A stretch of 64,000 bases of DNA, taken from Alphaproteobacteria bacterium. Its GTDB lineage: Bacteria > Pseudomonadota > Alphaproteobacteria > Bin65. This document shows, piece after piece, positions 18,357-42,475 of the stretch (its first letter is position 1; each line of letters starts with the position of its first letter). Where the stretch lies: contig CBDCQR010000004.1 in assembly GCA_965220685.1 (NCBI GenBank), forward strand, positions 14,542-78,541, given 5' to 3'. A model generated the notes under the pieces. It searched no databases. It had not been told where the DNA came from and was given only the letters and a program-made list of their open reading frames with translations. The position numbers were made by a program, and so were the translations under genes.

Positions 18357-20255
18357 CTACTCCGCGGCCAGCTTCATCGGCTGGGCCTGCTGCATCCATT
18401 TCTGGAAGACGGGCTGGCGCGGCGGGTCGAGGCTGGTATCGGCCTTGCAGCGCGCCTTCAGCTCCTCGACCGTGCCGCCGGTGTCGAACAGGGCGACGTC
18501 GCCGCGCTCGGTCGCCATGCGGCTGCGCAGGGTTTCGGTCTCGCGCGCGTCCACGCTCAGATCGTCGTTCAGCACCACGCCGTAGCGCCGCGCGCCGTCG
18601 CGGGTCACCAGCCCGCGCTTCGTATCCAGCGCGACCTGCTCGGCGCTGCGCTCCAGCGGGTCGCCCCAACCGCCGCCGCCCCAGGTGTTGAAGTAGAGCG
18701 TGTCGCCGGGCTCGACATGGACGCGGTCGGCCTTCGATTCCATCCACTGCTCCGAGCCGTCGGCGCGCACCATCAGCTTGGTGCTGCGCCGGCCCGGCAG
18801 GCCGCCGTTGACGCCCCAGGGATGGGTCAGCCAGCGGTCGTCATGGATCGAGATCTCGCCCGGCTCGAGGAACTGGTAGCCCATCGAGAGCCCGTTGCCG
18901 CCGCGGTGCAGGCCGGGTCCGCCGCTGTCGGCGATCGTCTCGTATTTCACGATGCGCAGCGGGAAATAGGCTTCGAGGAACTCGTTCGGCACGTTGGTGA
19001 AGGAGGGCCACAGGGAATGGCCGTCCGGCCCGTCGCCCGCCGGCCGGCCCGGCACGCCGCCGAAGCCGATCTGGTAGAGCTGGTACCACTCGCCGGACTT
19101 GTCGTAGCCCGAATACATGAAGTGCGGGCTGTCGGAGAAGCCGGCGGCGCACAGGGCTTCCGGCGAGCCCTGGCCGAGCAGGCCGCTCATGATGTCGAAG
19201 ATGCGCGCCAGCATGTGGGTGCGCGAAGAGAGCGCGGCCGGGCGGATCGGCTTCAGGATGGTGCCGCGTGGAATGCGCACGTCGACCAGGTCGTAGAAGC
19301 CGTCGTTGAACAGGATCTGCGGATCGAAGATGTTGATGAAGAAGGAGCCGAGGAACATCTTGAACATCTCCTCGTTGAGGAGAAAGTTCACCGAGCTGAT
19401 CGACTGCGGATCGGTGCCCTCGAAATCGAAGATCACCTTCTCGCCCTCGCGCCACATGGTGCAGGCGACCTTGTAGGGCCCCATGCCGAGGCCGTCGTCG
19501 TCGATGAAATCCTCGAAATAACGGCGCGATTCCGGGATCACCATCTGGAGGATCGCGCTCATCGCCCGCTTGTTGCGGTCGAGCATCTCGTCCATCGCCG
19601 CGGCGAGCTCGTCGACGCCGAAGCGCTCGGCCATCTCGTGGACCCTGCGCTCGGCGAGGCGCAGGGCGGCGACCACGGCGTTGAAGTCAGAGCGGTTCCA
19701 GTCCGGCAGGCGGCAGTTGCGCAGGATGAGTTCGAGGATCTCCTCGTTCAGCTTGCCCTTGCGGTAGATCTTGACCGGCGGGATCTGGATGCCTTCCTCG
19801 AAGATCTGCGCCGCGTCGGTCGGCAGGCTGCCCGGCACCTTGCCGCCGATATCTGTCATGTGACCGAACATGGCGGCCCAGGCGACGATCCGGCCGTCGA
19901 TATAGATCGGCATCATGGTCAGCCAGTCGTTGAGATGGCTGATCGCGCCGTTGCACGAATAGGGATCGTTGGTCAGGAAGACGTCGCCTTCCTCGATTTC
20001 CCCGTCATAGCCCTGCTGGAAGCCCCAGAAGAAGGAGCCGAACTGGCCGACCACCATCTTGCCGTCGGCGTTGGCGATCATGGGGAAGGCGTCGTGCTGC
20101 TCGCGGATGCCGGGCGACATGGCGGTGCGGAACAGCACGGCGTCCATCTCCGTGCGCGCGTTGCGCATGGCGTTCTCGATGATGTCGAGGGTGACGGGAT
20201 CGACGTCGACCTTCTTGAACGGGGCGGTATTGGTCTGGATCAGGCGGGCTGGCAT
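18357..20255 (-). CDS. hyuB: Hydantoinase B/oxoprolinase family (N-methylhydantoinase B-like), catalytic motifs intact
   Basis: DPVTLDIIENA, TNDPYSCNGAISHLND, FGHMTDIGG, TWGGGGWGDPLER. Confidence 0.88.
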   Translation of the reverse strand: MPARLIQTNTAPFKKVDVDPVTLDIIENAMRNARTEMDAVLFRTAMSPGIREQHDAFPMIANADGKMVVGQFGSFFWGFQQGYDGEIEEGDVFLTNDPYSCNGAISHLNDWLTMMPIYIDGRIVAWAAMFGHMTDIGGKVPGSLPTDAAQIFEEGIQIPPVKIYRKGKLNEEILELILRNCRLPDWNRSDFNAVVAALRLAERRVHEMAERFGVDELAAAMDEMLDRNKRAMSAILQMVIPESRRYFEDFIDDDGLGMGPYKVACTMWREGEKVIFDFEGTDPQSISSVNFLLNEEMFKMFLGSFFINIFDPQILFNDGFYDLVDVRIPRGTILKPIRPAALSSRTHMLARIFDIMSGLLGQGSPEALCAAGFSDSPHFMYSGYDKSGEWYQLYQIGFGGVPGRPAGDGPDGHSLWPSFTNVPNEFLEAYFPLRIVKYETIADSGGPGLHRGGNGLSMGYQFLEPGEISIHDDRWLTHPWGVNGGLPGRRSTKLMVRADGSEQWMESKADRVHVEPGDTLYFNTWGGGGWGDPLERSAEQVALDTKRGLVTRDGARRYGVVLNDDLSVDARETETLRSRMATERGDVALFDTGGTVEELKARCKADTSLDPPRQPVFQKWMQQAQPMKLAAE

Positions 20256-20269
20256 GGCTGCTGTCCTCC

Positions 20270-22696
20270 CTATCGGCCGTTCATCGGGCGGATGAGGATG
20301 TTGCCGACCTCGTCCACGGCGCCGGTATGGCCGTTCAGGATCAGGGTCGTCGAATCCATCTCGGTGACGATGGCCGGTCCGGCGATGCGGTCGCCGGCCT
20401 TGAGCAGGGCGCGGTCGTAGATCTGCGCCGGGTGTTCGCGGCCTTCGATATAGACCCGCGTCTGCTCGCGGACGGCGCCGGCGGCGTCTCCGGTGCCCTG
20501 CGGCAGCTCCTCGGCCGTCGCCGCGCTTTCCCTGCCCTGCACCAGGGCGCGCAGATTGTAGGATTCGTGCATGGTGTCGAGCCGGAAGGTGAAGAGCTGC
20601 TCGTGCAGCTCGTCGAAGCGGCGCGCGACCTCGCGCAGGCCGCCCTGGGCGAAGTCCTCCGGCGTGATGTCGACGGTGAGCTGCATGCCCTGGCCGTGGT
20701 AGCGCAGGTCGATCTGGTAAAGCGCCGACTGCTCGTTGCCGGGCACGCCCTCGGCATTCAGCGCCTCGGCCGCCTGCCGGGCCAGCGCCTCCAGCGCTTC
20801 GGCGACCTCGGCGTCGGTCGTCTCGTCGAAGCGCCGCACGAAGGTGCGCGAGGCCTCGTCGCGCACCCGCGTCGTCGCATCGCCGTAGGCGCACAGCACG
20901 CCCGGCCCCGGCGGGATGATGACCGGCCAGGAATTCATCAGCCGGCCGAGCGCATTGGCGTGCAGCGGGCCGGCGCCGCCGAAGCCGATGAGCGCAAAAT
21001 CGCGCGGATCGAAGCCCTGCTCGACCGAGACCAGCCGCAGCGCGCCGAACATGTTCTCGTTGACGATGTCGACGATGCCCTCGGCCGCCGCCTTGAGCGG
21101 CAGATCCATCCCCTTGGCGACCTTGCCGACCGCCTCCTCGGCCGCCCGGTAATCGAGCGCCATCTCGCCGCCCAGCCGGGCGCCGGACGGCAGGTAGCCG
21201 AGCACGACGTTGGCGTCGGTCACGGTCGGCTCGCCGCCGCCCTTGCCGTAGGCCGCAGGGCCCGGCTCGGCGCCGGCGCTCTGCGGCCCGACGCGCAACG
21301 CTTTCGTCAACTCCGGCACATAGGCGATCGAGCCGCCGCCAGCGCCGACCGTGCGCACGTCGACCGACGACGCGCGCACCGTCACATCGCCGACCCGCGT
21401 CTCGCGCCGCGTCTGGGCGACGCCTTTCTGGATCAGCGCCACGTCGGTCGAGGTGCCGCCCATGTCGAAGGTCAGCAGGTTGTCGTAGCCGGCCTGCCGG
21501 GCCATCCAGATGGCGCCGGAAACGCCGCCGGCCGGGCCGCTCATCAGCAGGTTGACCGGCGTCGCCTTGGCCGCATCCGCGCTCGCCAAGCCGCCGTCGG
21601 AGCGCAGGATGTGCAGCTGCACGCCGTTCATGCGCCGGTCGAGCTCGGCGTTGAGGCTCTCGATGTAGCGGGAGACCACCGGGCGGATGTAGGAGTTCAC
21701 GACCGTCGTTTCGGTCCGCTCGTATTCGTACATCTCCGGCACGACCTCGGAGGAAATCGAGATCGGCACGCCGGGCAGGATCTCCTCGGCAATGCGCCGG
21801 ATGCGCTGCTCGTGGACGCCGCTGGCATAGGCGTTCATCAGCGAGACGGTCAGCGCCTCGATGCCCTCGCCGCTCAGCCTCTGAAGGTCGCGGCGCAGCG
21901 CGTCCTCGTCCAGCGGCTCGACGATCTCGCCCTTCGCCCCGGTCCGCTCGTCGGCCTCGATGGTCAGTTCCAGCGGCGCCAGGGGATCGGCCTTGTTGAA
22001 GATCACCCAGCCGCCCAGGCCGCCCGGCACATAGGAGCGCGCGATCTGGAGCGTCTGCTTGTAGCCCTTGGTCGTAACCAGGCCGACCCGCGCGCCGGTC
22101 TGCGTCAGGATCGTGTTGGTGGCGACCGTCGTACCGTGCATCACCGCGCCGATATCGGTCGGCCCGATCCCGGCGTAGCCGCAGATGCGCTCGATGCCGT
22201 GCAGCACGCCCTGGGCAGAATCCTGCGGCGTCGAGGGCACCTTGGCGGTCCAGGCGTGGCCGGTTTCCTCCTCGATCAGCAACAGGTCGGTAAAGGTGCC
22301 GCCGACATCGACGCCGAGCCGATAGCCGCCGCCGACGACAGCGCGCCGGCGCGGCCGGGCCATCGGAGCCGGGCGGCGCGCGGCGGCGGCGCTGTCGGGA
22401 AGCGAGCGGGCCTCGCGGGCCTCGATCGCGGCGCCGTCGCCATTGCCTCGGCCGACCTCGGGAACGAACCGTCCGTCGCCGTCGCTGGGCGGCGGCGCGG
22501 GCGCCCGCGCTTCGATGCCGTCGCCGTTCGTGCGGGCGGGAGGCGGCGTCGAAGACGGTTCCGTGGGGGCCGCCGGCCCGCCGGGTTCCGATGCGGGTCT
22601 CGCCGCCTCGCCGTTGCCCAGCTTGTCGATCTGCTCCTGCAGATCGGCGAGTTTGCTGTCGAACCAGTTTGTCAGATCGCTGCCGGAACTGCTCAT
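20270..22696 (-). CDS. hyuA: Hydantoinase A/oxoprolinase family (N-methylhydantoinase A-like) with ~124-aa N-terminal extension
   Basis: GVDVGGTFTD, HGTTVATN, SGPAGG, DMGGTSTDV, GAGGGS, FGGAGPLH. Confidence 0.88.
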   Translation of the reverse strand: MSSSGSDLTNWFDSKLADLQEQIDKLGNGEAARPASEPGGPAAPTEPSSTPPPARTNGDGIEARAPAPPPSDGDGRFVPEVGRGNGDGAAIEAREARSLPDSAAAARRPAPMARPRRRAVVGGGYRLGVDVGGTFTDLLLIEEETGHAWTAKVPSTPQDSAQGVLHGIERICGYAGIGPTDIGAVMHGTTVATNTILTQTGARVGLVTTKGYKQTLQIARSYVPGGLGGWVIFNKADPLAPLELTIEADERTGAKGEIVEPLDEDALRRDLQRLSGEGIEALTVSLMNAYASGVHEQRIRRIAEEILPGVPISISSEVVPEMYEYERTETTVVNSYIRPVVSRYIESLNAELDRRMNGVQLHILRSDGGLASADAAKATPVNLLMSGPAGGVSGAIWMARQAGYDNLLTFDMGGTSTDVALIQKGVAQTRRETRVGDVTVRASSVDVRTVGAGGGSIAYVPELTKALRVGPQSAGAEPGPAAYGKGGGEPTVTDANVVLGYLPSGARLGGEMALDYRAAEEAVGKVAKGMDLPLKAAAEGIVDIVNENMFGALRLVSVEQGFDPRDFALIGFGGAGPLHANALGRLMNSWPVIIPPGPGVLCAYGDATTRVRDEASRTFVRRFDETTDAEVAEALEALARQAAEALNAEGVPGNEQSALYQIDLRYHGQGMQLTVDITPEDFAQGGLREVARRFDELHEQLFTFRLDTMHESYNLRALVQGRESAATAEELPQGTGDAAGAVREQTRVYIEGREHPAQIYDRALLKAGDRIAGPAIVTEMDSTTLILNGHTGAVDEVGNILIRPMNGR

Positions 22697-29119: not shown

Positions 29120-29947
29120 ATGGCGCGCTGGACCAGGCGGAGGACGAAGGCGCTGGCCGTGAAGACCGGCTTCAGCGTCTATTACGTCCTGTTCATCGTC
29201 TTCATTTTCGGGCCGATGATCGCGATGTTCGCCCTGTCCTTCCAGGGCCGGCGCGGCGGCACCAGCTTTCCCATGCGCGGTTTCAGCACCTACTGGTGGG
29301 AGAAGCTGCTGGAGCCGTCCTCGATCGGCGACCTGCAGGGCGCGCTCGCGCGGTCGATTATCCTGGCGCTCGTCGTGATGGTCATCACGGCGCTGTTCTC
29401 GACCATGCTGGCGATGGCGTTCCGGCGCAAGTTCCGGGGCGCCAACCTGCTGTTCTACACGATCATGCTGGGCCTGATGGTGCCGGGCGTGCTGCTCAGC
29501 CTGGGCCTCGCCACCCTGTTGCAGCAGATCGGCATTCCGCCGGCCTGGTGGTCGTCGGGCCTGGGCGTCCATGTCGTCTGGACCCTGCCCTTCGGTTTCC
29601 TGGTGATGATGGCGGTCTTCAACCGGTTCGACAGCAGCCTGGAGGAGGCCGCCCGGGATATGGGCGCCGGCGAATGGACGGTGTTCCGCGAAATTACCCT
29701 GCCGCTCATCCTGCCCGGCATCGTCGCCGCCGGCCTGTTCGGCTTTACCCTGTCCTACGACGAGTTCGCCCGCACGACCCTGCTGTCGGGCGAGTACAAC
29801 ACCCTGCCGCTCGACATCAACGCCTCGATGACCCAGCGCATCCGGCCGACCCTGTTCGCGCTCGGCACCGCCTCCACCATCTTTTCCTTCTGCCTGATCG
29901 GCCTGTTCATCCTGGTCTACACCATCCTCTACCGGCGGGCGCGGTAA
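29120..29947 (+). CDS. ABC transporter permease, PotC-like
   Basis: EEAARDMGA, ITLPLILPG, TLSYDEF. Confidence 0.88.
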   Translation: MARWTRRRTKALAVKTGFSVYYVLFIVFIFGPMIAMFALSFQGRRGGTSFPMRGFSTYWWEKLLEPSSIGDLQGALARSIILALVVMVITALFSTMLAMAFRRKFRGANLLFYTIMLGLMVPGVLLSLGLATLLQQIGIPPAWWSSGLGVHVVWTLPFGFLVMMAVFNRFDSSLEEAARDMGAGEWTVFREITLPLILPGIVAAGLFGFTLSYDEFARTTLLSGEYNTLPLDINASMTQRIRPTLFALGTASTIFSFCLIGLFILVYTILYRRAR

Positions 29948-31194: not shown

Positions 31195-32286
31195 CTACGG
31201 ATTCTGCTCCAGCAGCACGCCGGCGTCGGCGGGCCAGCAGATCGTCTCGCGTTCGCCGGGATCGTACATGCGGTCGTTGACGCCGCGGTGCTGCTCGACC
31301 GAGACGTAGACCTCCGGCGCGATCTCGAACACGTCGGTCTCCAGCGATCCCCGGAACTCGGTCGTGGCGTAAGTGCCCTCGACCCGGTTCGCCATGTCGG
31401 GATGCTCTCCGGTGTGCATCAGGTCGGCGCGCACCGAGAAATGCGCCTCGCGGTCGACATGGACGGCCGCGATATAGTCCGGTACCCGGACATAGAACAT
31501 CCTGCCATGGGCCTCGACGAGCACGATCGAGCCGGAGCGCGAGCGCACAATGCCCCGGATCAGGTTGTTGTTGCCGATGAAGGAGGCGACGAAGCTGGTG
31601 CGCGGCGCTTCGTAGATTTCCCGTGACGTGCCGGTCTGCTGGATCAGCGCGTCGCTCATCACGATTACCTTGTCGGCCATCGACATGGCCTCTTCCTGGG
31701 AATGGGTCACCATGATGAAAGTGATGCCGGTGTCGCGCTGGATCTTCTTCAGCTCGATGATCATCGACTGGCGCAGATTGTAGTCCAGCGCGCCGAGCGG
31801 CTCGTCGAGCAGCAGGACCGTCGGCTCGCTGATCAGCGCCCGGGCCAGCGCGACGCGCTGCTGCTGGCCGCCGGAGAGATCGTGGGGCCTGCGGTCGGCG
31901 AGCGGCCCGAGGCCAACCATTTCCACCATGTCCCGGGTCCGGCGCGCCCGCTCCTCCCTGGGCACGCCCTGCATCTTCAGGCTGAACTCGACATTCTGAA
32001 GCACGTTTCGGTGCGGGAACAGCGCGAAACTCTGGAACATCATCGACGTGTTGCGCTGGGACGGCGGCAGGTCGGTCACGTCCTTGCCGGCGAGCCAGAT
32101 CTTGCCGCTGGTCACCTCCTCGAGGCCGCCGATCATGCGCAGGGTCGTCGTCTTGCCGCAGCCGCTCGGTCCCAGCATCGCGACGAACTCGCCGTGCCGG
32201 ATTTCACAGTTGAAATCGATCACCGCGCGCACGTTGCCCGGAAAGGTCTTGTTCACCCCCTCCAGGACGACGTCGAAATCGGTCAT
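31195..32286 (-). CDS. ABC transporter ATP-binding protein, PotA-like
   Basis: GPSGCGKTT, LSGGQQQRVALARAL, LLLDEPLGALD. Confidence 0.92.
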   Translation of the reverse strand: MTDFDVVLEGVNKTFPGNVRAVIDFNCEIRHGEFVAMLGPSGCGKTTTLRMIGGLEEVTSGKIWLAGKDVTDLPPSQRNTSMMFQSFALFPHRNVLQNVEFSLKMQGVPREERARRTRDMVEMVGLGPLADRRPHDLSGGQQQRVALARALISEPTVLLLDEPLGALDYNLRQSMIIELKKIQRDTGITFIMVTHSQEEAMSMADKVIVMSDALIQQTGTSREIYEAPRTSFVASFIGNNNLIRGIVRSRSGSIVLVEAHGRMFYVRVPDYIAAVHVDREAHFSVRADLMHTGEHPDMANRVEGTYATTEFRGSLETDVFEIAPEVYVSVEQHRGVNDRMYDPGERETICWPADAGVLLEQNP

Positions 32287-32341: not shown

Positions 32342-34900
32342 TCAGTCGGTCCTTTCCGTCAGCGCGCTCAGCAGCGACCAGATCGTCTCGAACGGCACGT
32401 CGGCGAAATCGCCCTCGGCCGCGACCTGTTTGAGAAGGCCGACGGCGCGCTGCTGCGCCGGATCGTTGCCGGCCGCTTCTTCCAGCTTGCCGACCGCCTC
32501 GCCGAGCGGCGCCTGCCGGGCCGCCTCAGTGCCCAGTTCGCGCTCGACCAGAACCTTGAGCTGGCCGTGGGTCTGGAGCAGCAGGCCGCTGTCCGCAGGC
32601 CGGCCGAACAGGCCGCGCAGCCCGTTGGCGTTGAAGCGGTCGCGCAGGCCGTCCGGCATCGAGTGGGCCAGCCCCTCCATCGCCTCGCCCAGGCCGAAGC
32701 CGGAGTTGAACAGGCCGCGAATCGTGTCCATCGTGCCGTCGTTGCTGCCGCCATACATGCGGATATGCGCGCCTTCCAGGGCGTTGCCCATGGCCTTGGC
32801 CTGGTCGATATGGACGTCGCGCTCGGCCTCGATGAAGAGCTTCGAAAGCTCCAGGAACATTGCGGCCTCGTTGTATTTCTTGAGCGCGTCGGCCTTGGCC
32901 TCCATGCCGGCGGCCTCGGCCTTCAGCTTTTCCTCGGTCCGCTGCACGCGCAGCGCCTCGATCTCCATCTCGGCCCGGCCCCGGGCGCCGGCCTCGCGCT
33001 CAACGCCCTCGGCGGTGATTTTCTGCGCCTCGCTATTGGCATTGGCCTTTGTCAGCGTGGCCGCGGCCTCGCGCTCCGCCGACTGCTGGCGCGCCTCGGA
33101 CTGGGTGACCATGTGCATGCTGGCGATCTGCGCCTTCGCTTCTTCGGCGATCCGCTCGGCCGCGGCCTGCTTCTCGGCCTCGATGCGCCGGATTTCCTTC
33201 TCCGTCTCGGCGTCGGCGAGATGGCCGGCGGCCTCGGCGGCGTGGGTTGCCCGGATGCGGTCCGCGGTGGTGGCCAGCCGGTCGGCCTCGGCGGCCTCCA
33301 GTTCCCGCGTCTTCTCCTCCAGCGCGATCTCGCGGTCGCGCTCCTCGATCTCACGCGCCAGGAAACGCCGGATGTCGACGGTCTCGCGCTCCTGTTCCTT
33401 GCCGATCAGCGCGATTTCCCGCTCCCGCTCCTCCAGTTCGACGGCCAGCTGGCGTTTGATCTCGGCGGCTTCCTTCTTGGTCCCCTCGTCAATGATCGCC
33501 GCGTCCTTCTCGATCCGAGCGGCCTCGTAGGCCCGCTCCTTTTCGATCTCCTCCTGCTGTACGGTCCAGCGCTGTTCGATGATGAAGCGCTGGGATTCGC
33601 TCATCGTCCGCGCCTTCTCGTTGGAGACCTCCTGCTCCTGGTTGGCGGAGGCGAATTCCTCCTCCTTGTCCAATTCCAGCAGGTTCAACCGGGTCGCCAG
33701 GCTCAGCCGGCGGGTTTCCAGCGCCGCCTGTTCGGCGGCCTTGTGGCGCTCGATCCGGGCCGACTCCTCTTCGGCGGCGACCGCGGTCGCCTGGGCGATG
33801 TCGGCCTTCTGGCGCTCGACCTCTTTCTGGATCAGGCCGATCTGCTTGTCCTTCTCCGCCTTCTCGCGCGCCAGTGAGCGGTCGATTTCGGCCAGTTCCT
33901 CTTCCTTGGCCTTGGCGATAATGGCGATTTCCTTGTCGCGGCGCTCCTGCTCCAGTTTCAGGGCCTTCTGGATTTCGGACGCCTCGCGCTTCTGGGCCTC
34001 TTCCGTGATCGCCAGTTCGCGGTCGGTGCGCATCTTTTCGAGCTCGACCTCGTTGCCAATCTCCTGCTCTTCGACGGCCTTGCGCTGGTTGAGGATGAAG
34101 ACCTGCTTCTCGCGCATCTGCAGGGCTTCCTCGTTGGAGATCGCCTTGTCCTGATTGGCGCGCGCGGTCGCTTCCTGGCGCTCGATCTCGAGCAGTTCGA
34201 GCTGGGTGTCCAGATCCTTCTGGCGGATCGCGACCGTGGTGCGTTTTTCGGTGTCGTGGACCTTGCGCCGGGCGTCGCTGGTGATCTCAGTGATGATTTT
34301 CAGGCCCTCGGCGTCGAACACGTTGTCGGTCTTGAAATGCTCCTTGCCGGTCTGTTCCAGGGTGACGACGGTGACCTCTTCCAGGGTCAGGCCGTTGGCG
34401 TTGAAGCTTTCGGTCACGTTGGCCTTGATCGCCTCGGCCATCGCTTCGCGGTTCTCGTGCAGTTCCTTGAGCGACTTGGTGGCGGCATAGCTGCGCAGGG
34501 CACCGACCACCTTGGCTTCGAGCAGGCTGCGCACCTTCTCCGGATCGAAGGTCTTCTCGCCCAGGCTGCGCCCCGCGGTCAGCAGTTCCTGCTCGGTCCG
34601 GCCGACATGGGTGTAGAGTTCCGCCCCGACATCGACGCGGACATTGTCATGGGTCAGAATCGCCTGGTCGCGCGAGCGGCTGACGATCAGCTTGATCGTC
34701 TCGAGCGAGACCCAGGTCACCTCATGGAAGACGGGCAGGACGATCGCACCGCGGCCCAGGCACACCTTGGTGCCGAGGAAGCCGGTGCGGATGAAACCCA
34801 TGTTCGACGGCGCGCGCTTATACACCCAGATCGACAGGATGTAGATGATCGCGATGACGATGATCGCCAGCACGATGCCGACGATGATGTTCTCAACCAT
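32342..34900 (-). CDS. Flotillin-like SPFH protein with very long coiled coil, 852 aa
   Basis: N-terminal TM helix, SPFH domain (RTGFLG..V...GAIVLPVFH, T.DNVRVDV), NVFDAEGL, then about 500 aa of E/K/R/A-rich helix. Confidence 0.88.
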   Translation of the reverse strand: MVENIIVGIVLAIIVIAIIYILSIWVYKRAPSNMGFIRTGFLGTKVCLGRGAIVLPVFHEVTWVSLETIKLIVSRSRDQAILTHDNVRVDVGAELYTHVGRTEQELLTAGRSLGEKTFDPEKVRSLLEAKVVGALRSYAATKSLKELHENREAMAEAIKANVTESFNANGLTLEEVTVVTLEQTGKEHFKTDNVFDAEGLKIITEITSDARRKVHDTEKRTTVAIRQKDLDTQLELLEIERQEATARANQDKAISNEEALQMREKQVFILNQRKAVEEQEIGNEVELEKMRTDRELAITEEAQKREASEIQKALKLEQERRDKEIAIIAKAKEEELAEIDRSLAREKAEKDKQIGLIQKEVERQKADIAQATAVAAEEESARIERHKAAEQAALETRRLSLATRLNLLELDKEEEFASANQEQEVSNEKARTMSESQRFIIEQRWTVQQEEIEKERAYEAARIEKDAAIIDEGTKKEAAEIKRQLAVELEEREREIALIGKEQERETVDIRRFLAREIEERDREIALEEKTRELEAAEADRLATTADRIRATHAAEAAGHLADAETEKEIRRIEAEKQAAAERIAEEAKAQIASMHMVTQSEARQQSAEREAAATLTKANANSEAQKITAEGVEREAGARGRAEMEIEALRVQRTEEKLKAEAAGMEAKADALKKYNEAAMFLELSKLFIEAERDVHIDQAKAMGNALEGAHIRMYGGSNDGTMDTIRGLFNSGFGLGEAMEGLAHSMPDGLRDRFNANGLRGLFGRPADSGLLLQTHGQLKVLVERELGTEAARQAPLGEAVGKLEEAAGNDPAQQRAVGLLKQVAAEGDFADVPFETIWSLLSALTERTD

Positions 34901-35002: not shown

Positions 35003-37249
35003 TCACCGCGCGCTCCCGCCGCCGGACCGGCCGCCGGATCTGCCGAGCGTCTCGCGCAGTTCCTGAGTCGCCTTCCTGTCGATCGTACAGGCCGCCGGGC
35101 TGCCGGCGACGACGACACCATAGCGATCCCGGGCCCCGGCCGTCGAGACCAGGCCGCGCCGGACATCTTTCTGGACCTGTTCGGGGCTGCGGTCCAGCGG
35201 ATTGCCCCATCCGCCGCCGCCCGCGGTCCGGAAGATCAGTCGGTCCCCGGGCGCCACCCCCACACCGCCGGCCTTCGAGCCCGGCTGTTCGCGCGATCCG
35301 TCGGTTCGCACCACGATCTTCTCGGAACACGCCCCGGCCTCGCCGCCGTTGCGGCCCCAGGGTTGCGATTGCTCCCGTTCGTCGCGCCAGCTCAACGTGC
35401 CGGCCGTCCGGAACCTGTAGACTTTCTCGACACCACAGCCGCCGCGATGCGCACCGGCGCCGCCGCTGTCGGCAATTGCCGTTACGCTCTCGACTGTGAC
35501 GGAGAAGTCCGATTCCAGCTGTTCGGCCGGCCGGCTCCTGGCGCCGGCGGAGAGCGACCGACCGTCCCCGCCGTCGCGCCCGGAGCGCGCCGGCGCGCCG
35601 CCGAACAGGCGGTCGGTCAGGGAAACCGCCCGGCCGCCGTCGTCCTCGCCGGTGAATACGAGCTGCGGGCTGGACCCGTAGCCGGCCGCGGCGCCCGCGG
35701 CGCCGGCGAACTGGCCGAGCACGCCGTTCAACACATCGTAGACCCGCGCCAGGGTCTGGGCGCCGTTGCCCAGCGGCGCCGGAAAACGCGGGTGCAAAAG
35801 GCTGCCCGGGGGAAGCGTGATGCGCAGCGGCGCCAGCACCCCGTCGTTGACCGCAATTTCCGGATCGAAGGTCCGGATCAGCAGACCGGCGGCGATATGG
35901 GCGAAGACTGTATCGTCAAGCAGCAGGTTGACCGGTCCTTCGGCCTGGGCTGCCGTGCCCGTCCAGTCGAAAAACGCCTGTTCGCCCTCGCGCCATACCG
36001 CCAGCTTGAGTGTGAACGGTCCGTTGCCGCAGCCGTCGCTGTCGATCCTGTCCTCGAAGGATTTCGGCTCTTCGGGGAGATGCTCGGCAACGATCCGGCG
36101 CAGGGCCCGCCCGGTGCGCTCCAGCGCCGCGGCGCAGGCCTGCCGGTAACTCTCGGTCCCGAAGCGGACGCACAGGTCGGCGATTCCCCGTTCGCCGGCC
36201 TGCGCCGCTTCGACCAGCGCGCGGAGGTCGCCGTGGGCCGCCCCGGATTCGGGAATGTTGTTCAGCATGAGGTCCAGCGCCGCGCTGCCGGCCTGGCCAT
36301 TGTCGAAAATGCGGATCGGCGGAATCCGCAGCCCTTCGCCGTAGACCGAGCGCGCGCCGTTCGGGGCGCTTCCCGGGGCCGCGCCGGCGCTGCCGGCCAT
36401 CGGCTCCGTCGCGGCGCTGAAACCGACCGGATCGCCGCCGGTCTCCGCGGCGAATACCGGAACGATCGCCGTCCACGTCCCGGCCTGAACGCCGGCGTAG
36501 GGATCGCCGACCAGGAAAACGTCGCCCGGGCGGAGATCGCGCGACCGGTTGCGGGCCAGGCCGGCGACGGCCGGCACCGGACGGCCGATCAATGTGGCGC
36601 CGCGGGCGTCGGTCAGCGTCGCCGTTTCGGCGGCCTTCTGCCGCACCGGTTCGGCGATCGCAGCCTGCGCCAGAACGTTGCCCGCTTCCTTGCGGATCTG
36701 ACGCCAGGCCGCCTCGATCCGGTCGAGGGCGAGCGCATCCAGTGCGCCGCTCGGGGCCGGAGCGGCGCGCTGCCCCGTAGTCGCTGGGGCCGCAGGAGCG
36801 CGCGGCGGGGCAGGATCCGTCGTGGCCGCCGACGGTTGCGCGCCGTGGGCCAGCGCATCGGCCGCCCTTGCGAGGGCCGACCGGCGCGCCGACTCCAGCG
36901 CCGCCTCGCGGTCCTGGTCTGCCGGCGCATCGCCGAATTCGAGGGCGGAGCGGCCGTCCACCGTCAGCCGGTAGAGCGCCGAAAGCGTGTTGCCGGTCAC
37001 TTGTGTTTCGACCAGCTCGGCGGACCAGTCCGCGCCGAACCGCCGGCTCAGCACGGCATCGATGTCCGAAGCCGCCTCGGCGTGCGGTTCGGCCGCCGGC
37101 TCTTCCGGAGCCGCAGCGCGCTGTCCTCGGTTGCGCAGTCCGGCGGCGTCCGCCTGGCGCAGCCGGTCGGCAAAAGTCCGGTCGAATTGCTCGCGGGTCG
37201 ATTCCAGCATCGCGTCGAGCGACGGAGTCGAGGAACGGGGCGGCGTCAT
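35003..37249 (-). CDS. Degenerate hydantoinase B/oxoprolinase-like protein with N-terminal extra domain
   Basis: ATG at 37249 overlaps the upstream stop (ATGA); HyuB fold motifs EGLRIPP, DSDG, TAGGGGWGNPLDR; metal-ligand motifs are missing. Confidence 0.8.
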   Translation of the reverse strand: MTPPRSSTPSLDAMLESTREQFDRTFADRLRQADAAGLRNRGQRAAAPEEPAAEPHAEAASDIDAVLSRRFGADWSAELVETQVTGNTLSALYRLTVDGRSALEFGDAPADQDREAALESARRSALARAADALAHGAQPSAATTDPAPPRAPAAPATTGQRAAPAPSGALDALALDRIEAAWRQIRKEAGNVLAQAAIAEPVRQKAAETATLTDARGATLIGRPVPAVAGLARNRSRDLRPGDVFLVGDPYAGVQAGTWTAIVPVFAAETGGDPVGFSAATEPMAGSAGAAPGSAPNGARSVYGEGLRIPPIRIFDNGQAGSAALDLMLNNIPESGAAHGDLRALVEAAQAGERGIADLCVRFGTESYRQACAAALERTGRALRRIVAEHLPEEPKSFEDRIDSDGCGNGPFTLKLAVWREGEQAFFDWTGTAAQAEGPVNLLLDDTVFAHIAAGLLIRTFDPEIAVNDGVLAPLRITLPPGSLLHPRFPAPLGNGAQTLARVYDVLNGVLGQFAGAAGAAAGYGSSPQLVFTGEDDGGRAVSLTDRLFGGAPARSGRDGGDGRSLSAGARSRPAEQLESDFSVTVESVTAIADSGGAGAHRGGCGVEKVYRFRTAGTLSWRDEREQSQPWGRNGGEAGACSEKIVVRTDGSREQPGSKAGGVGVAPGDRLIFRTAGGGGWGNPLDRSPEQVQKDVRRGLVSTAGARDRYGVVVAGSPAACTIDRKATQELRETLGRSGGRSGGGSAR

Positions 37250-39291
37250 GCGGCGTTGCCCCCGTCCCGGTCCGGCGCGATGACGAGCGCGCCGTCGGCC
37301 CCGGCCGCGCCGGCATAGCCGGGATGAACCACCGCCGTCCAACCGTCCCCGGCGACCAGCGCCGGGCCGGCGACCCGGCTGCCGGCCTCCAGCCTGTTTG
37401 TCGCATAAACCGGCGCGGTCAGGAAATTGCCGTCGAGATAGATTCGCTGCTCGCCGACCTTTGCGCCGGAAGCGTCGCCCCGGCCGGACGGCCGCGGCGC
37501 GGACCGGCCCGGCGATGCGCCGTTGCGCCGTCCTGCCGCCCTGCCGCCTGCGACGGCGCGCAGCCGGACCAGTTCGACCGGCGCATCGAGCCGGACCCCG
37601 TGACGTTGCTCGAAGGCAGTCGCGAAGCGGTCCGCCAGGTCGCGCAGGCCCCAGTTGGGCAGGTTCACCGGATCGATATCGAGCGTGAAATCGCTGCCCT
37701 GACCGCGATAGCGCACATCCGCTTCGAAGCGGAGCTGCCGGCCGGTTGCGGACTCGCCCTCCTCGTCCAGCCAGGCGTTGGCGCTGCCGCCCAGCGAATC
37801 GAGAATCTCTCCGACGGTCGCGGCGTTCGTATCGTCGAGCAGGCAGCGGCAGCTGTGCCCGAATTCCTGCCGGGGCTGCGCATCGACAAAGCCGCGGGCC
37901 GACATCGAGCCCGGCCGCGCCGGGATGACGACCGGCCCGTCGCCGCACAGGATGGCGAGCGCATTGCCGTGCAGCGGCCCGGCGCCGCCATAGGCGACCA
38001 GCGGCATCGACGCGATGTCGACGCCGTGCGCCGCCGCAGTCTGGCGCAGGGCGCCGTACAGTTTCTCGTTGGCCAGGTCGCGAACGCCCTGCGCCGCCTG
38101 ATAGGGGTTCACGCCCAGCCGGTCGGCGAGGCGGGCGATCGCAGCCTCCGCCGCGGCGCGGTCGGGCGCAAATCCTTCGACGGACCCGGCCGGGATCAGG
38201 CCGAGCACGAGGTTCGCGTCGGTGAGCGTCGGCCCGTCGCCGCCGAAGCAGGCGGGCCCGCCGGCCGCGGCCTCCGGCCCGACGCGCAGCGCGCCATGAC
38301 CGGTGATCCGCACCGCCGCACCGCCGCCGGCGCCCGCCTGGAGGACGGCGATGGACGGCAGTGTCAGGTTCGCGCCGGCAACCCGCGTCCTGCGGGTCAC
38401 GACCGGCGCGCCGTCGAGAACGATCCCGATCGTGGTCGCGCCGCCGCCCATATCCAGCGCGAGCGCATCGCGGCAGCCGGCATGCGACGCTGCTACGGCG
38501 GCGGCGGCAACGCCCGCGGCGGGCCCGGCATTGAGCGCATCGACCGGCGCGTCGCCGGCATGCACGACCGACATCGATCCGCCGTCGGCGCGCGCGACAC
38601 GGATCTCCGCCGTGGCTTCCAGAGTGCGCAGCGTGTCGGCAAAGCCCTCGAAATAGCGGGTGAGCGCCGGGCGCAGCACCGCCGTCGACACCGCGGCGAC
38701 CGTCCGCTCGTAATCGGCCGATTCCCGGACGACATCGCTGGACAGGACGACCGGCATATCGGCGGCAATTTCGCCGATCAGCGCCTTGAGCGCCCGCTCG
38801 TGCGCCGGGTTCGCCGCGGCGTGGAGCAGCGAAACCGCGATGGCAGTCGCACCGAGGTCGCGCAGCGTCTGGATCGCGTCTCTTGCCCTCGCTTCGTCGA
38901 TCGGCTGCCGGACCTGACCGCCCGCCTCCATGCGCTCGGCAATGCCGAGGGTTGCGACGATGCGGCCGGCCAGCGGGCTCGTCCCCTGGCCGCGGCCGAG
39001 CAGCAGCACATGCTCGAAGCCGGCCGTGACCAGCAGGCCGACGGTCGGACCGCCGGTTTCCGCAGGGTCGAGCCCCGAGACGCCGTGAACGACCGTCGCG
39101 ATATCGCCGGGCGCGACGCCGGCCCCGGAGGCCAACTCGCGAATGCCGCCGGCGATGGCGGAAGCCGGATCGTCGGGGCTGTTCGCCGTCTTGAGCGCGT
39201 GCACCGTCCCGGAATCGTCGAGCAGCAACAAATCCGTGAACGTCTTGCCGATATCGATACCCAGACGATGGGGCATGGAGTTTTCCGTCAT
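37246..39291 (-). CDS. Divergent hydantoinase A/oxoprolinase-like protein
   Basis: GIDIGKTFTD, DMGG, GAGGG, PTLTDAN, YGGAGPLH; several ATP-site motifs altered. Confidence 0.82.
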   Translation of the reverse strand: MTENSMPHRLGIDIGKTFTDLLLLDDSGTVHALKTANSPDDPASAIAGGIRELASGAGVAPGDIATVVHGVSGLDPAETGGPTVGLLVTAGFEHVLLLGRGQGTSPLAGRIVATLGIAERMEAGGQVRQPIDEARARDAIQTLRDLGATAIAVSLLHAAANPAHERALKALIGEIAADMPVVLSSDVVRESADYERTVAAVSTAVLRPALTRYFEGFADTLRTLEATAEIRVARADGGSMSVVHAGDAPVDALNAGPAAGVAAAAVAASHAGCRDALALDMGGGATTIGIVLDGAPVVTRRTRVAGANLTLPSIAVLQAGAGGGAAVRITGHGALRVGPEAAAGGPACFGGDGPTLTDANLVLGLIPAGSVEGFAPDRAAAEAAIARLADRLGVNPYQAAQGVRDLANEKLYGALRQTAAAHGVDIASMPLVAYGGAGPLHGNALAILCGDGPVVIPARPGSMSARGFVDAQPRQEFGHSCRCLLDDTNAATVGEILDSLGGSANAWLDEEGESATGRQLRFEADVRYRGQGSDFTLDIDPVNLPNWGLRDLADRFATAFEQRHGVRLDAPVELVRLRAVAGGRAAGRRNGASPGRSAPRPSGRGDASGAKVGEQRIYLDGNFLTAPVYATNRLEAGSRVAGPALVAGDGWTAVVHPGYAGAAGADGALVIAPDRDGGNAA

Positions 39292-39472
39292 TCCTCCCGC
39301 GCGCCGCCCGGGGGGCTGGCGCGCAGGCGGATAATTCCCAACGCGGCCCGCGCCGTCAACCGATGCAGCGCCCGTTGCGGGGCGACCGATCGGCCCCTGC
39401 GTCGGGGCTTTTTTTCCGAAACCCGGTATGCTGTACTGCCGGCCGTTTCAACAACCGGACCCCGTTCGAGCC

Positions 39473-39991
39473 ATGGCGCAGGTAACCGAGGGCCTACGTT
39501 CCCTTCGATTCTGGATCGTTGTCGTCGGCCTCGTGATCCTGGCGGTCTTCGTCTATTTCTATCCACCCTTCGAGAAACTGGTCAGCGACAGCATCCGGGG
39601 CCTGGCGTCGTCGACCATCGTTTTCTGGTTCGCCGCCTTCGTCGGCGTCGTCGCCTACGTCATCGCGCACTGGCAGTCGTTCCGCCAGCACTTCTTCCGC
39701 CGGGTCAGCGATCTGGACGCTGAAGGGCTGGTCTTCGACACGCTGCAGGTCGCGCTGCTGGTCGCGCTGATCCTGTGCGCCGGAGGGATTCTTCAGCTCA
39801 TCGAAATGCTGAGCCTGCACCTGATCGACAAGGGCACGGTGCTCGACCCGGTCTTTGGGCGCAAATTGCTGGCCATGATCGTTCTGGTGATCCTGGCGAT
39901 CGGCTTCTACCTGCTGCACCGCATGGTGCGCGCCTTCCGCCTCGGCCGCCGCCCCGGCCGCACCCCGCCACGCCGCAGTTCGAGCGCCTAA
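39473..39991 (+). CDS. Uncharacterised 4-TM membrane protein (paralogue of 26084-26551)
   Basis: YFYPPFEKL / VFW / HWQSFRQH pattern shared with 26084-26551. Confidence 0.72.
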   Translation: MAQVTEGLRSLRFWIVVVGLVILAVFVYFYPPFEKLVSDSIRGLASSTIVFWFAAFVGVVAYVIAHWQSFRQHFFRRVSDLDAEGLVFDTLQVALLVALILCAGGILQLIEMLSLHLIDKGTVLDPVFGRKLLAMIVLVILAIGFYLLHRMVRAFRLGRRPGRTPPRRSSSA

Positions 39992-39996
39992 GGGAC

Positions 39997-41013
39997 CTAC
40001 GCGGCCGCCAGCGCGTTGAAGGCGCCGAGCGAGCCTTCGATCTCCGCCCGGTCCATGTCCTGAACGATGAAGACGATGCGCGAGCGGCGGTCGCCGTCGG
40101 GCCAGCCGGTCATGTGGGTCGGCGGATGGACGATGTGCTGGACGCCGTTGATCAAGACCGGGTCGGCGACACCGGCAACGTTCAGCATGCCCTTGACGCG
40201 CAGGACGCGCTCGCCGTGCCGGTTGAGCAGCATGCTCATCCACAGGCCGAACGCCGTCCAGTCCATCGGCCCGTCGAATCGGAGGCAGAAAGAGCCGACC
40301 CCGTGGCTGTGGTCGTGGTCGTGTCCGTCGCCGGAAGCCCCGGCGAATCCGTCCAGCCAGCCGGCGACCTCGCGCCGCTTGCCGCCAGTCGCATAAAGAT
40401 CGTCGGTCAGGAGGGCGTCCGGATCGAGCGGGTCGGAGTCCAGGTCGAGAACCGGCGCGGCGGCGTTGATGTCGCGCACGGCGGCGCGGACGGCCCGGCC
40501 GCCGTCGTCCGCCATCGCCGTCTTGGTCAGCACGAACCGATCGGCGATCGCTGCCTGCTTGACCGATTCGGGATGGCGTTCGAGCTGCGCCGCCCCGTTC
40601 ACCGCATCGATGACGGTGACGGCGTTGCCGAGCCGGAAGTGATGCTGCAGTACCGGCTCGGCGAGGATCGTGTAGGCGATGGGAGTCGGGTCGGCGAGGC
40701 CGGAAGTCTCGATGGCGATGCGCCGGAAGGCCGGGATCTCGCCGCGCGTGCGCTGGGAGAACAGGCTTCTCAGCGCGCCCTGCAAGTCGCCGCGGATGGC
40801 GCAGCACAGGCAGCCGCTGTCCATCAGCAGGACGCTTTCCTCGGCATGCTCGATCAGGTGATGGTCGAGGCCGACTTCGCCAAACTCGTTGATGAGGACG
40901 GCGGTGTCGCGCAGGGCCGGTGACTGGAGCAGCCGGGCCAGCAGGGTCGTCTTGCCGCTGCCGAGGAATCCGGTGACGATGTTGATCGGGATCAGCGTGT
41001 CGTAGGCGGTCAT
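39997..41013 (-). CDS. CobW/COG0523 family GTPase metallochaperone
   Basis: TGFLGSGKTT, INEFGEVGLDH, GCLCC, IETSGLADP, His-rich HDHDHSH, LRVKG. Confidence 0.92.
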   Translation of the reverse strand: MTAYDTLIPINIVTGFLGSGKTTLLARLLQSPALRDTAVLINEFGEVGLDHHLIEHAEESVLLMDSGCLCCAIRGDLQGALRSLFSQRTRGEIPAFRRIAIETSGLADPTPIAYTILAEPVLQHHFRLGNAVTVIDAVNGAAQLERHPESVKQAAIADRFVLTKTAMADDGGRAVRAAVRDINAAAPVLDLDSDPLDPDALLTDDLYATGGKRREVAGWLDGFAGASGDGHDHDHSHGVGSFCLRFDGPMDWTAFGLWMSMLLNRHGERVLRVKGMLNVAGVADPVLINGVQHIVHPPTHMTGWPDGDRRSRIVFIVQDMDRAEIEGSLGAFNALAAA

Positions 41014-41333
41014 CGTGCCGCGAGGCCCGCGAGCAGCGCCGGGTCCAGGGGATCGCAGCCGCGGCCGGTCAGGGCCTCGGCCGCGATCCAGACCTCGGTG
41101 ATGTTGTCGACGATCTTCGAGCGCCCGGTGTGGGTCGACAGCACATAGGACCCGCCGCTGAAATCCGCGAGCTTCAGGCCGTAATGGCCGAGGATGCGGT
41201 TGGCGAGGCGGATGCGCTCCTGGCGCTCGCGCCGCCGGGTCACCTCTTCCCGGCGGCTGGCGAAGGCTTCGGGCGAAGAACTGCTTTCGGTCCAGTGGCC
41301 GCGCCCGCCGAGCACGCCGCACAGGCCGCACAT
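41010..41333 (-). CDS. Small conserved protein with N-terminal CxxC (MCGLCG)
   Basis: 107 aa; stop overlaps the CobW start (ATGA). Confidence 0.75.
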   Translation of the reverse strand: MCGLCGVLGGRGHWTESSSSPEAFASRREEVTRRRERQERIRLANRILGHYGLKLADFSGGSYVLSTHTGRSKIVDNITEVWIAAEALTGRGCDPLDPALLAGLAAR

Positions 41334-41383
41334 GGCGGAGCCGCCGCGCTGCGACTATCCGCCGGGCCGCGCCGGCGCCACGC

Positions 41384-42475
41384 TCAGACGAGCACCGATT
41401 CCGGCCGCGCCGCCCCCTCGCGCGGATAGCGCTGGATGAAATCGTCGGCGATCTCGTCGAAGGTGCACCAGCGCACGCCGGCATGCTGGCTGATATAGTC
41501 GAACACCCGCTCCAGCATCAGCAGGACCTGCGGCCGGCCGGCGACGTCCGGGTGGATGGTCAGCGTGTAGACCGCGTAGTCGTATTCCCGGTAGACCCAT
41601 TCGAACTGCTGGAGCCACAGGTCCTCGATATCCCGCGGGTTGACGAAGCCGAAGCTGTTCGGCGCCGACTTGATGAACATCATCGGCGGCAGGTCGTCGA
41701 GATACCAGCTGCCTGGAATGTCGACGAGGTCGGTCTCGACGCCGCGCACCAGCGGCTTCATCCACTCATCCGCGTTCTTTGAATAGTCGATCTTGGTCCA
41801 GCTGTCGCCGACCCGCGCGTAGAAGGGGTGGAAATCGTTGTTCATCAGGCTGTGGTCGTACTTGATGCCCTTCTTGAGCAGCAGCTCGTTGGTGATCGCG
41901 CTGAACTCCCACCAAGGCGCGACATAGCCGGTCGGCCGGCGGCCGGACAGCCGCTCGATCAGCTCGATGCACTTGTCCAGAACCGCCTCTTCCTGCTCCG
42001 GCGTCATGGAGATGGGGTTCTCGTGGGAATAGCCGTGCATGCCGATCTCGTGGCCGGCGTCGACCACCATCTTCATCTGCTTCGGGAATGTCTCGATCGA
42101 ATGGCCGGGAATGAACCAACTCGTCCGGATGCCGAACTTGTCGAACAGCCGGACCAAGCGCGGCGAGCCGATCTCGCCGGAAAACAGGCCGCGGGAGATG
42201 TCGCAGGGCGAATCCTCACCGCCGTAGGAGCCGAGCCAGCCGGCGACCGCATCGACATCGATCCCGATGGCGCACAGGATGTCCTTCTTGCCGCCGCCCG
42301 AGGCTGCCGCTGCGGGCGCAGGGCGGGTCGGAGCAGCCAGCGGCGGGCCGCCGCCGGGCGCACGGCCGCCCGGGTCAGTCCCCCGGTCAATCAGGGAACG
42401 TGGCTGGTAACGCGGCCCGATCCCGCCGGAAGCGCGGGTCGCCCGCATCGAATCGCTGGTTCTGTCGTCGCTCAT
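41384..42475 (-). CDS. Polysaccharide deacetylase family (CE4, H. pylori PgdA-like) with ~62-aa N-terminal extension
   Basis: [44 protein letters not shown]. Confidence 0.88.

Follow-up and report, generated by a model that had tools for sequence, protein, structure and literature searches.

A flotillin-linked HyuA/HyuB pair of an Alphaproteobacteria bacterium with lost active-site motifs, probably retained as a non-catalytic heteromer

Why should a pair of genes whose products lack the residues known to be essential for catalysis remain full length, coupled, and under selection? This question is raised by hyuA2 and hyuB2, the second of two HyuA/HyuB pairs in a 64,000-nucleotide stretch of an Alphaproteobacteria bacterium genome (assembly GCA_965220685.1, contig CBDCQR010000004.1, positions 14,542 to 78,541), hereafter called the window. 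The first pair, hyuA1 and hyuB1, lies 15 kb away. An initial annotation made from the sequence alone had read the second pair as pseudoenzyme subunits acting as scaffold, sensor or adaptor rather than as decaying genes. All motif strings it quoted for both pairs were found as written, and the two reading frames of the second pair were full length and joined by an ATGA overlap (Table 1). Based on structural alignments, orthologue comparisons and the gene context in related genomes, HyuA2/HyuB2 is probably a dead descendant of a flotillin-linked ATP-dependent amidohydrolase of the hydantoinase/lactamase type, kept as a non-catalytic structural heteromer.

In CapB, the beta subunit of caprolactamase CapAB, the metal ligands are Asp41, His99, Asp102, and His124, and each single replacement by alanine resulted in an inactive protein (PMC8453981). 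HyuB1 aligned with CapB from end to end, which fixed the correspondence of the ligand positions. The HyuB1 motifs read NDPYSCNGAISHLNDW and FGHMTDIGG; their HyuB2 equivalents read GDPYAGVQAGTW and AATEPMAGSAG. On alignment to the solved structures of CapB, N-methylhydantoinase (NMHase), and acetophenone carboxylase (Apc), the positions of D41, H99, D102, and H124 are occupied by A207, Q255, T258, and P283 in HyuB2, and none of the four ligands is kept. The absence of the His/Asp/His set described initially was thereby borne out. It was even slightly understated, since the fourth ligand, corresponding to CapB Asp41 (HD replaced by AA), had been overlooked and the adenosine motif of HyuA2 is shortened as well. 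The pattern is not due to chance, as HyuB2 is the only one of the 12 Hydantoinase_B paralogues in the 4.05 Mb genome in which both histidine motifs are missing.

Alternative metal ligands had been named at the outset as a finding that would speak against a pseudoenzyme. No replacement cluster of His or Cys was detected among the invariant residues specific to the clade of degenerate HyuB2 proteins; the invariant acidic residues specific to this clade (D445, E464, D546, and D708) are scattered and are accompanied by neither His nor Cys. The alignment thus gives no sign of a replacement metal site in HyuB2.

The fold was kept. HyuB2 matched the Pfam family Hydantoinase_B (PF02538) with 346.8 bits (E 2.4e-103) over profile positions 3-519 of 519, and its glycine-rich structural motifs are intact. 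The AlphaFold model had a mean predicted local distance difference test score (pLDDT) of 81.6, with low confidence in the former metal loop (residues 286-301). It superimposed on CapB (6yra_B) with a template modelling score (TM-score) of 0.83, and the Foldseek match to NMHase (9h03) reached E 8.6e-39.

Ligand variants were also observed elsewhere. Another paralogue in the same genome (G000:C15:551506-553083) reads GGNQNND, with Gln in place of the first histidine (the H99 equivalent), and keeps KGHQADIGG. The metagenomic relatives P0032 and P0033 carry Arg at the H99-equivalent position. As these proteins are otherwise intact, single-ligand variants do occur.

In HyuA2, the ATP site is affected. 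Hydantoinase_A subunits are recognized by the motifs PHOSPHATE 1 (DxGGTxxD; PMC8453981), PHOSPHATE 2 (DxGGT), and ADENOSINE (GxxPGP). HyuA2 has none of the three in complete form: the aspartates are kept, and the Gly/Thr and Pro-Gly-Pro elements are gone. HyuA1, with canonical ATP motifs, reads DVGGTFTD, HGTTVATN, and DMGGTSTD, whereas HyuA2 reads DIGKTFTD, HGVSGLD, and DMGGGATT. The fourth position of the phosphate-1 motif, canonically the second Gly, is Lys in the window copy and K, N or A among the orthologues. In the phosphate-2 motif, the equivalents of CapA T299 and D302 are gone and variable among orthologues; the HGTT motif is gone, with indels, and the adenosine motif reads AG--GP and is two residues shorter in all 11 orthologues. 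In CapA, T15, D18, K32, and T299 bind the nucleotide phosphates, D302 lines the substrate site and the tunnel, and the exchanges D11A and D295A nearly abolish activity (PMC8453981). The three-domain architecture of HyuA2 is preserved, with Pfam matches above the cut-offs for Hydant_A_N (PF05378, E 2.4e-26), Hydantoinase_A (PF01968, E 7.9e-53), and Hydant_A_C (PF19278, E 1.1e-8) and an end-to-end alignment with CapA and NMHase. Its best-conserved block of 20 amino acids (residues 401-420) coincides in part with helix N of CapA, the helix in contact with CapB.

One species (locus L035, genome G010) has a further degraded hyuA2, with the phosphate-1 motif EVGNGHTD, K34 replaced by R, and NAGP by QAAR. 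This orthologue showed the highest ratio of nonsynonymous to synonymous substitution rates (dN/dS, 0.34-0.38), yet the reading frame and a GTGA overlap are retained.

The orthologues speak for selection on the protein. Each of the 13 species-level genomes of the genus has a full-length HyuB2 orthologue without stops (57-96% identity), and the 20-kb loci retrieved from 10 genomes besides that of the window all contain hyuA2 and hyuB2 in intact form. No frameshift or stop was found among the HyuA2 and HyuB2 orthologues examined. The four-base stop/start overlap is retained in 11 of 11 genomes (GTGA instead of ATGA in one), and so is the order of the opposite-strand gene for a small protein with four transmembrane segments, hyuA2, hyuB2, the flotillin gene, and the ABC ATPase gene. 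Against the window copy, dN/dS (Nei-Gojobori) was 0.19-0.38 for hyuA2 and 0.15-0.34 for hyuB2, at synonymous divergences (dS) from 0.12 to above 1, and the bootstrap 95% intervals were all below 0.4 (five pairs, four of them phylogenetically independent). Together, the overall range of 0.15-0.38 and the undisturbed frames agree with the initial proposal of pseudoenzyme subunits as opposed to decaying genes. Within HyuB2, the ratio was lowest in a Rad52-like N-terminal domain (0.07-0.25), followed by the HyuB domain (0.20-0.37) and the linkers (approximately 0.5-1).

The constraint does not favor the former active sites. Over 11 species, the mean pairwise identity of the catalytic columns was 0.99 in HyuA1 and HyuB1, where they are the best-conserved parts. 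In HyuA2, these columns hardly differ in conservation from the remaining sequence (0.73 vs. 0.72), and in HyuB2 they reached 0.55 compared to 0.71 elsewhere, a value as low as in only about 4% of random segment sets. Fifty-eight positions that are invariant in intact relatives show at least three states in the degenerate clade, the four ligand positions among them; the residues at the former ligand positions continue to vary from one species to the next, with indels in the loops. Within the HyuB domain, conservation was lowest in the segment lining the pocket (residues 221-340).

For the intact pair, dN/dS was lower (0.09-0.24 for hyuA1, 0.03-0.16 for hyuB1), and dN of hyuB2 was about four times that of hyuB1 between the same genomes (2.5- to 9-fold, depending on the pair). 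HyuA2 and HyuB2 diverge faster than all neighbouring genes. Two lineages with intact pairs share 79% identity in HyuB and 65% in flotillin; among the degenerate lineages, the values are 56-60% and 82-84%, respectively. The evolutionary rate of HyuB thus rose roughly fourfold relative to the neighbouring genes. Taken at the level of sequence, loss of essential residues, purifying selection, and unconstrained catalytic columns mark HyuA2 and HyuB2 as apparent pseudoenzymes, and we infer that the pair is catalytically inactive.

An intact version of the module exists outside the genus. In a maximum-likelihood tree, HyuB2, HyuB1, and metagenomic proteins formed one clade with 100% support, and the other ten paralogues fell outside. 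Among 401 sampled genomes of the class, 12 from other families carried a full-length homologue, and all 12 homologues retain the four HyuB ligands. Their HyuA partners show FDMGGTSTDV and GAxPGP, the two motifs visible in the flanks, so that phosphate 2 and adenosine are canonical in the partners of intact HyuB. A flotillin gene follows HyuB in each of the twelve. Every longer contig has the same gene string, namely a CobW-type GTPase, the small four-transmembrane protein, HyuA, HyuB, a flotillin of 850-940 amino acids, a PotA-like ABC ATPase, two permeases, and a binding protein. Metagenomic relatives are intermediate: either H99 alone is replaced (by R) or one to three ligands are lost, and a half-degenerate HyuA partner is included. 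Intact homologues elsewhere and these intermediates together indicate that the loss was lineage-specific and stepwise and affected both subunits together.

Replacement of pair 2 by HyuA1/HyuB1 soon after a duplication was considered and rejected. Most of the 12 genomes with an intact module also carry a B1-like copy, in seven cases on the same contig at a distance of about 15-22 kb, and the two-pair state is therefore old and not the result of a recent duplication.

HyuB2 carries a conserved N-terminal extension of about 170 amino acids, with a helix (residues 10-37), a disordered linker, a compact domain (residues 59-135), and a second linker. The amphipathic helix (SLDxLLxxxRxQFD) is common to all flotillin-linked members of the clade, degenerate or intact. 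The compact domain was modelled with a pLDDT of 87 and the topology H-E-E-E-H. Human RAD52 occupied ranks 1-4 of the Foldseek search (E 1.6e-3 to 5e-3, TM-score 0.41-0.46), with double-stranded RNA-binding domains close behind. Searched against 1.8 billion representatives, a profile of the domain retrieved 158 proteins (E<=1e-3), and all nine sampled proteins of about 200 amino acids belonged to Pfam Rad52_Rad22 above the gathering score. The Pfam model itself (PF04098) gave no match to the window copy at E<=1 and matched two of 11 orthologues (best E 9.2e-7), and the domain profile found nothing significant among PDB sequences (best DnaK, E 0.75). Support for the assignment as Rad52-like thus came only from Foldseek and from the profile search against the 1.8 billion representatives. 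HyuB2 has in common with Rad52/Rad22 proteins the alpha-beta-beta-beta-alpha core; in contrast to them, it holds only this core of about 75 amino acids, fused to an enzyme subunit, and no DNA-related genes were found near hyuB2. As 11 of the 12 intact homologues also contain the domain, it is older than the loss of catalysis.

The Rad52-like core is fused to the Hydantoinase_B N-terminus in degenerate and in intact proteins, from at least 11 alphaproteobacterial genomes, and the flotillin gene is always next. The fusion looks like an undescribed domain architecture.

These observations are compatible with the following course of events. The ancestral module would have consisted of HyuA, HyuB with N-helix and Rad52-like domain, a giant flotillin, and a PotA-like ABC ATPase, a module that occurs widely in Alphaproteobacteria with its active sites intact. 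Its enzyme pair would have been active and may already have had a second, structural role tied to the Rad52-like domain, the N-helix, the flotillin, and the importer. In the lineage leading to the genus, both sites would have decayed stepwise, the ATP site in HyuA and the metal site in HyuB, and the proteins would have stayed under purifying selection that protected the fold, the A-B interface, the N-helix, and above all the Rad52-like domain. Because these parts are still protected, the pair has most likely survived as a heteromer without catalytic function. The role retained may be that of an oligomeric building block or adaptor of an assembly of flotillin and ABC importer, with the hydrolytic chemistry left to HyuA1/HyuB1. 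A role as scaffold, sensor or adaptor, as proposed initially, is indirectly backed by the flotillin linkage, the constraint on the N-domain, and the interface helix. Formation of an A2-B2 complex, contact with the flotillin, and a division of labour with HyuA1/HyuB1 would follow from the same picture. A more far-reaching version, which we regard as speculative and rather unlikely, sees in HyuA-HyuB-flotillin an undescribed membrane-anchored "enzyme raft" of Alphaproteobacteria. A ring derived from Rad52 would multimerise the amidohydrolase on flotillin beside an ABC importer, and in this genus the pair would be purely architectural and would position HyuA1B1, whose HyuA1 has an N-helix of its own, at the site of substrate uptake.

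Several findings weigh against a non-catalytic heteromer. HyuA2 retains D13, T17, D20, K34, and D280 in 10 of 11 species. The counterparts of these residues in CapA bind Mg-nucleotide, and D13 and D280 correspond to the two aspartates essential in CapA. With these two aspartates kept, residual nucleotide binding is possible, and the subunit may still bind ATP or carry out a kinase-like step. In the solved NMHase (7hk5/9h03), the position of H124 is occupied by Gln, and partial ligand sets may therefore still be functional. A dN/dS of 0.2-0.3 is equally expected of a weakly constrained enzyme. The link to the flotillin is given by gene order alone, and a targeting peptide common to the N-terminal helices of HyuA1 and the HyuB clade was not supported (hhalign probability 9%, 14 columns). 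The kept aspartates and the Gln of NMHase make an enzyme of changed chemistry the main alternative, although an improbable one. In that case, HyuA2 would have kept the activity of an ASKHA kinase or ATPase, and HyuB2 would do without the canonical metal and might serve, for instance, as lyase or carrier of a phosphorylated intermediate. The intact fold with its glycine-rich motifs and the purifying selection across the entire HyuB domain are in keeping with such an enzyme. HyuB2, however, has no ligand at all, unlike NMHase, which is short of one. Its former active-site columns have not become fixed in a new state but still drift, with indels; the degenerate clade has no invariant His/Cys/Asp cluster of its own. 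Further points against such an enzyme are the deletion in the adenosine motif, the residues E, G, and R that one species carries at three of the retained HyuA2 positions, and an evolutionary rate raised about fourfold over that of the neighbouring genes.

Still less probable is a ligand sensor without catalysis, in which the pair would still bind the substrate of its ancestor and control either the neighbouring ABC importer or gene expression. The conserved placement of the pair, with a divergent promoter region on one side and the gene for the ABC ATPase on the other, and the retained fold of the HyuB pocket would suit a sensor. The low conservation of the pocket region weakens this proposal; furthermore, the proteins contain no DNA-binding or signalling domain besides the Rad52-like fold, and no regulator gene was conserved beside the pair at the loci examined. 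Neutral decay of genes merely not yet disrupted could account for the missing catalytic motifs and for a divergence exceeding that of all neighbouring genes. The orthologue data exclude it for practical purposes: none of the 13 species-level genomes has a disrupted frame, the start/stop overlap has persisted, the dN/dS intervals stay far below 1 for dS values reaching beyond 1, and 256 of 736 aligned columns are invariant across the 13 sequences of the degenerate clade. Retention as a non-catalytic heteromer thus remains our preferred explanation.

Active ancestor, partial intermediates, and fully degenerate forms all occur in the same gene context, which makes this an unusually clean case, so that one can read in which order the active sites of two coupled subunits decayed. 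The same series allows a search for a non-catalytic function that outlives catalysis. Encoding an enzyme subunit that bears a Rad52-like domain together with a giant flotillin and an ABC importer, the module may serve as a concrete and testable bacterial example of what is organised by flotillin scaffolds. Current annotation names these genes "hydantoinase B/oxoprolinase family protein", which we flag as an annotation problem.

The ATP-dependent caprolactamase CapAB from Pseudomonas jessenii (PDB 6YRA; PMC8453981) has the same build of two subunits, an ASKHA-type ATP subunit and a Hydantoinase_B subunit, and the same folds, and the A-B interface helix is conserved in HyuA2. It differs from HyuA2/HyuB2 in its complete set of metal ligands and undamaged phosphate-1, phosphate-2, and adenosine motifs; HyuB2 has in addition the N-terminal helix and Rad52-like domain, and its genes stand in the order A, B, flotillin. 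Scores against the NCBIfam equivalog models of CapA and CapB (NF050156 and NF050157) were 301 and 147 bits, below the cut-off of 1000. The best match in sequence and fold for both subunits was NMHase (7HK5/9H03), a single fused A-B chain without Rad52-like domain, which in contrast to our pair keeps D41, H99, and D102 along with canonical ATP motifs.

Apc had been cited initially as a complex with paralogous subunits. This parallel holds in so far as Apc is a precedent for duplicated HyuA-type paralogues coexisting in one system. It does not extend to their state: alpha and alpha' of Apc both keep the ADENOSINE, PHOSPHATE 1, and PHOSPHATE 2 motifs and are regarded as active kinases (PMC5214803). 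Apc also has a single beta subunit plus gamma and epsilon, whereas here A and B are both duplicated and one pair is apparently dead. No genes for small gamma or epsilon subunits of the Apc type were found among the neighbouring reading frames scanned with Pfam, and the scores against the NCBIfam Apc models were far below the cut-offs.

Clusters with a flotillin-associated rhodopsin (FAR) in SAR11, HIMB59, and Pseudothioglobus show an analogous organisation, with flotillin co-transcribed with genes for transport and amide catabolism, and also have a degenerate member, a rhodopsin without retinal binding (PMC10308929). The FAR cluster was rejected as the same system, as no HyuA or HyuB genes are described there and only an unrelated PxpA-like subunit is listed. 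Its flotillin has about 660 amino acids compared to 852 here. A full-text literature search found no paper linking flotillin with hydantoinases, and likewise no description of an inactive HyuA/HyuB protein or of any hydantoinase, oxoprolinase or ketone-carboxylase pseudoenzyme.

Table 1. Features of the window with their positions (first letter of the window = 1). aa, amino acids; AF2, AlphaFold2; nt, nucleotides.
Feature	Position	Strand	Description	Basis
hyuA2	37246-39291	minus	681 aa; ASKHA-type Hydantoinase_A subunit, degenerate ATP-site motifs	Pfam, CapA/NMHase alignment
HyuA2 phosphate-1 motif	39232-39255	minus	DIGKTFTD	Motif table, 11 orthologues
HyuA2 phosphate-2 motif	38431-38454	minus	DMGGGATT (canonical DMGGTSTD)	Motif table
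hyuB2	35003-37249	minus	748 aa; ATG overlaps hyuA2 TGA as ATGA	
HyuB2 N-terminal amphipathic helix	37139-37222	minus	aa 10-37, SLDAMLESTREQFDRTFADRL...	AF2 (helix 11-35)
HyuB2 Rad52/Rad22-like domain	36845-37075	minus	aa 59-135; alpha-beta-beta-beta-alpha	AF2, Foldseek, profile
HyuB2 Hydantoinase_B domain	35045-36733	minus	aa 173-735; fold kept	Pfam, Foldseek
HyuB2 former metal site	36380-36637	minus	aa 205-290	Alignment, AF2 model
Flotillin-like gene	32342-34900	minus	852 aa; directly downstream of hyuB2 in all genomes examined	
PotA-like ABC ATPase gene	31195-32286	minus	Next in the same conserved gene string	
Sigma-70-like promoter match	39331-39359	minus	TTGACG-17-AATTAT; 40 nt upstream of hyuA2	Consensus scan
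hyuA1	20270-22696	minus	808 aa; conserved N-terminal extension of about 120 aa	
hyuB1	18357-20255	minus	632 aa; all four metal ligands present	

The promoter-like match upstream of hyuA2 was the only one in the region in a consensus scan, and the same scan of the minus strand detected no terminator-like site from this promoter down to position 29800. This fits a single predicted hyuA2-hyuB2-flotillin-ABC ATPase transcript. The flotillin-like protein has an N-terminal transmembrane segment, an SPFH/Band_7 domain, and a coiled coil of about 600 amino acids rich in Glu, Lys, and Ala, a composition that accounts for the strong AT skew (-0.32) at 32-34 kb. Flotillin identity is 82-99% among lineages where the adjoining HyuB2 proteins share only 56-96%. 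The gene at 39428-39991 (plus strand) encodes a protein of 187 amino acids with four transmembrane segments and a weak Yip1 match, and accompanies the HyuA-HyuB-flotillin string. The CobW-type GTPase gene at 39997-41484 (minus strand) does so too, distant relatives included. A GTPase gene of the metallochaperone type thus still stands beside an enzyme pair whose metal site is lost.

The hyuA1 and hyuB1 genes are located directly downstream of a gene for an isochorismatase-family hydrolase, as expected of a pathway of the creatinine/N-methylhydantoin type, and an amidase gene lies about 2 kb off on the other strand. The isochorismatase-family gene gave a weak generic hydrolase match only, and its identity as N-carbamoylsarcosine amidase was not confirmed. 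Residues 1-120 of HyuA1 (22330-22696, minus strand) form an amphipathic helix, DLTNWFDSKLADLQEQIDKL, followed by a linker rich in Pro and Ala with NGDG/GNG repeats, an arrangement similar in form to the helix and linker of the HyuB clade. In the same genomes, dS of pair 1 was two to three times below that of the degenerate pair (for example, 0.16-0.24 vs. 0.54-0.55 for G000/G002), a difference that suggests either that pair 1 is highly expressed and strongly biased in codon usage or that it has been exchanged among members of the genus. In one species (G011), about 350 kb separate the intact pair from the degenerate one, compared to about 17 kb where both share a contig. Both pairs still have undisrupted genes in G011, and close linkage of the two is therefore not required.

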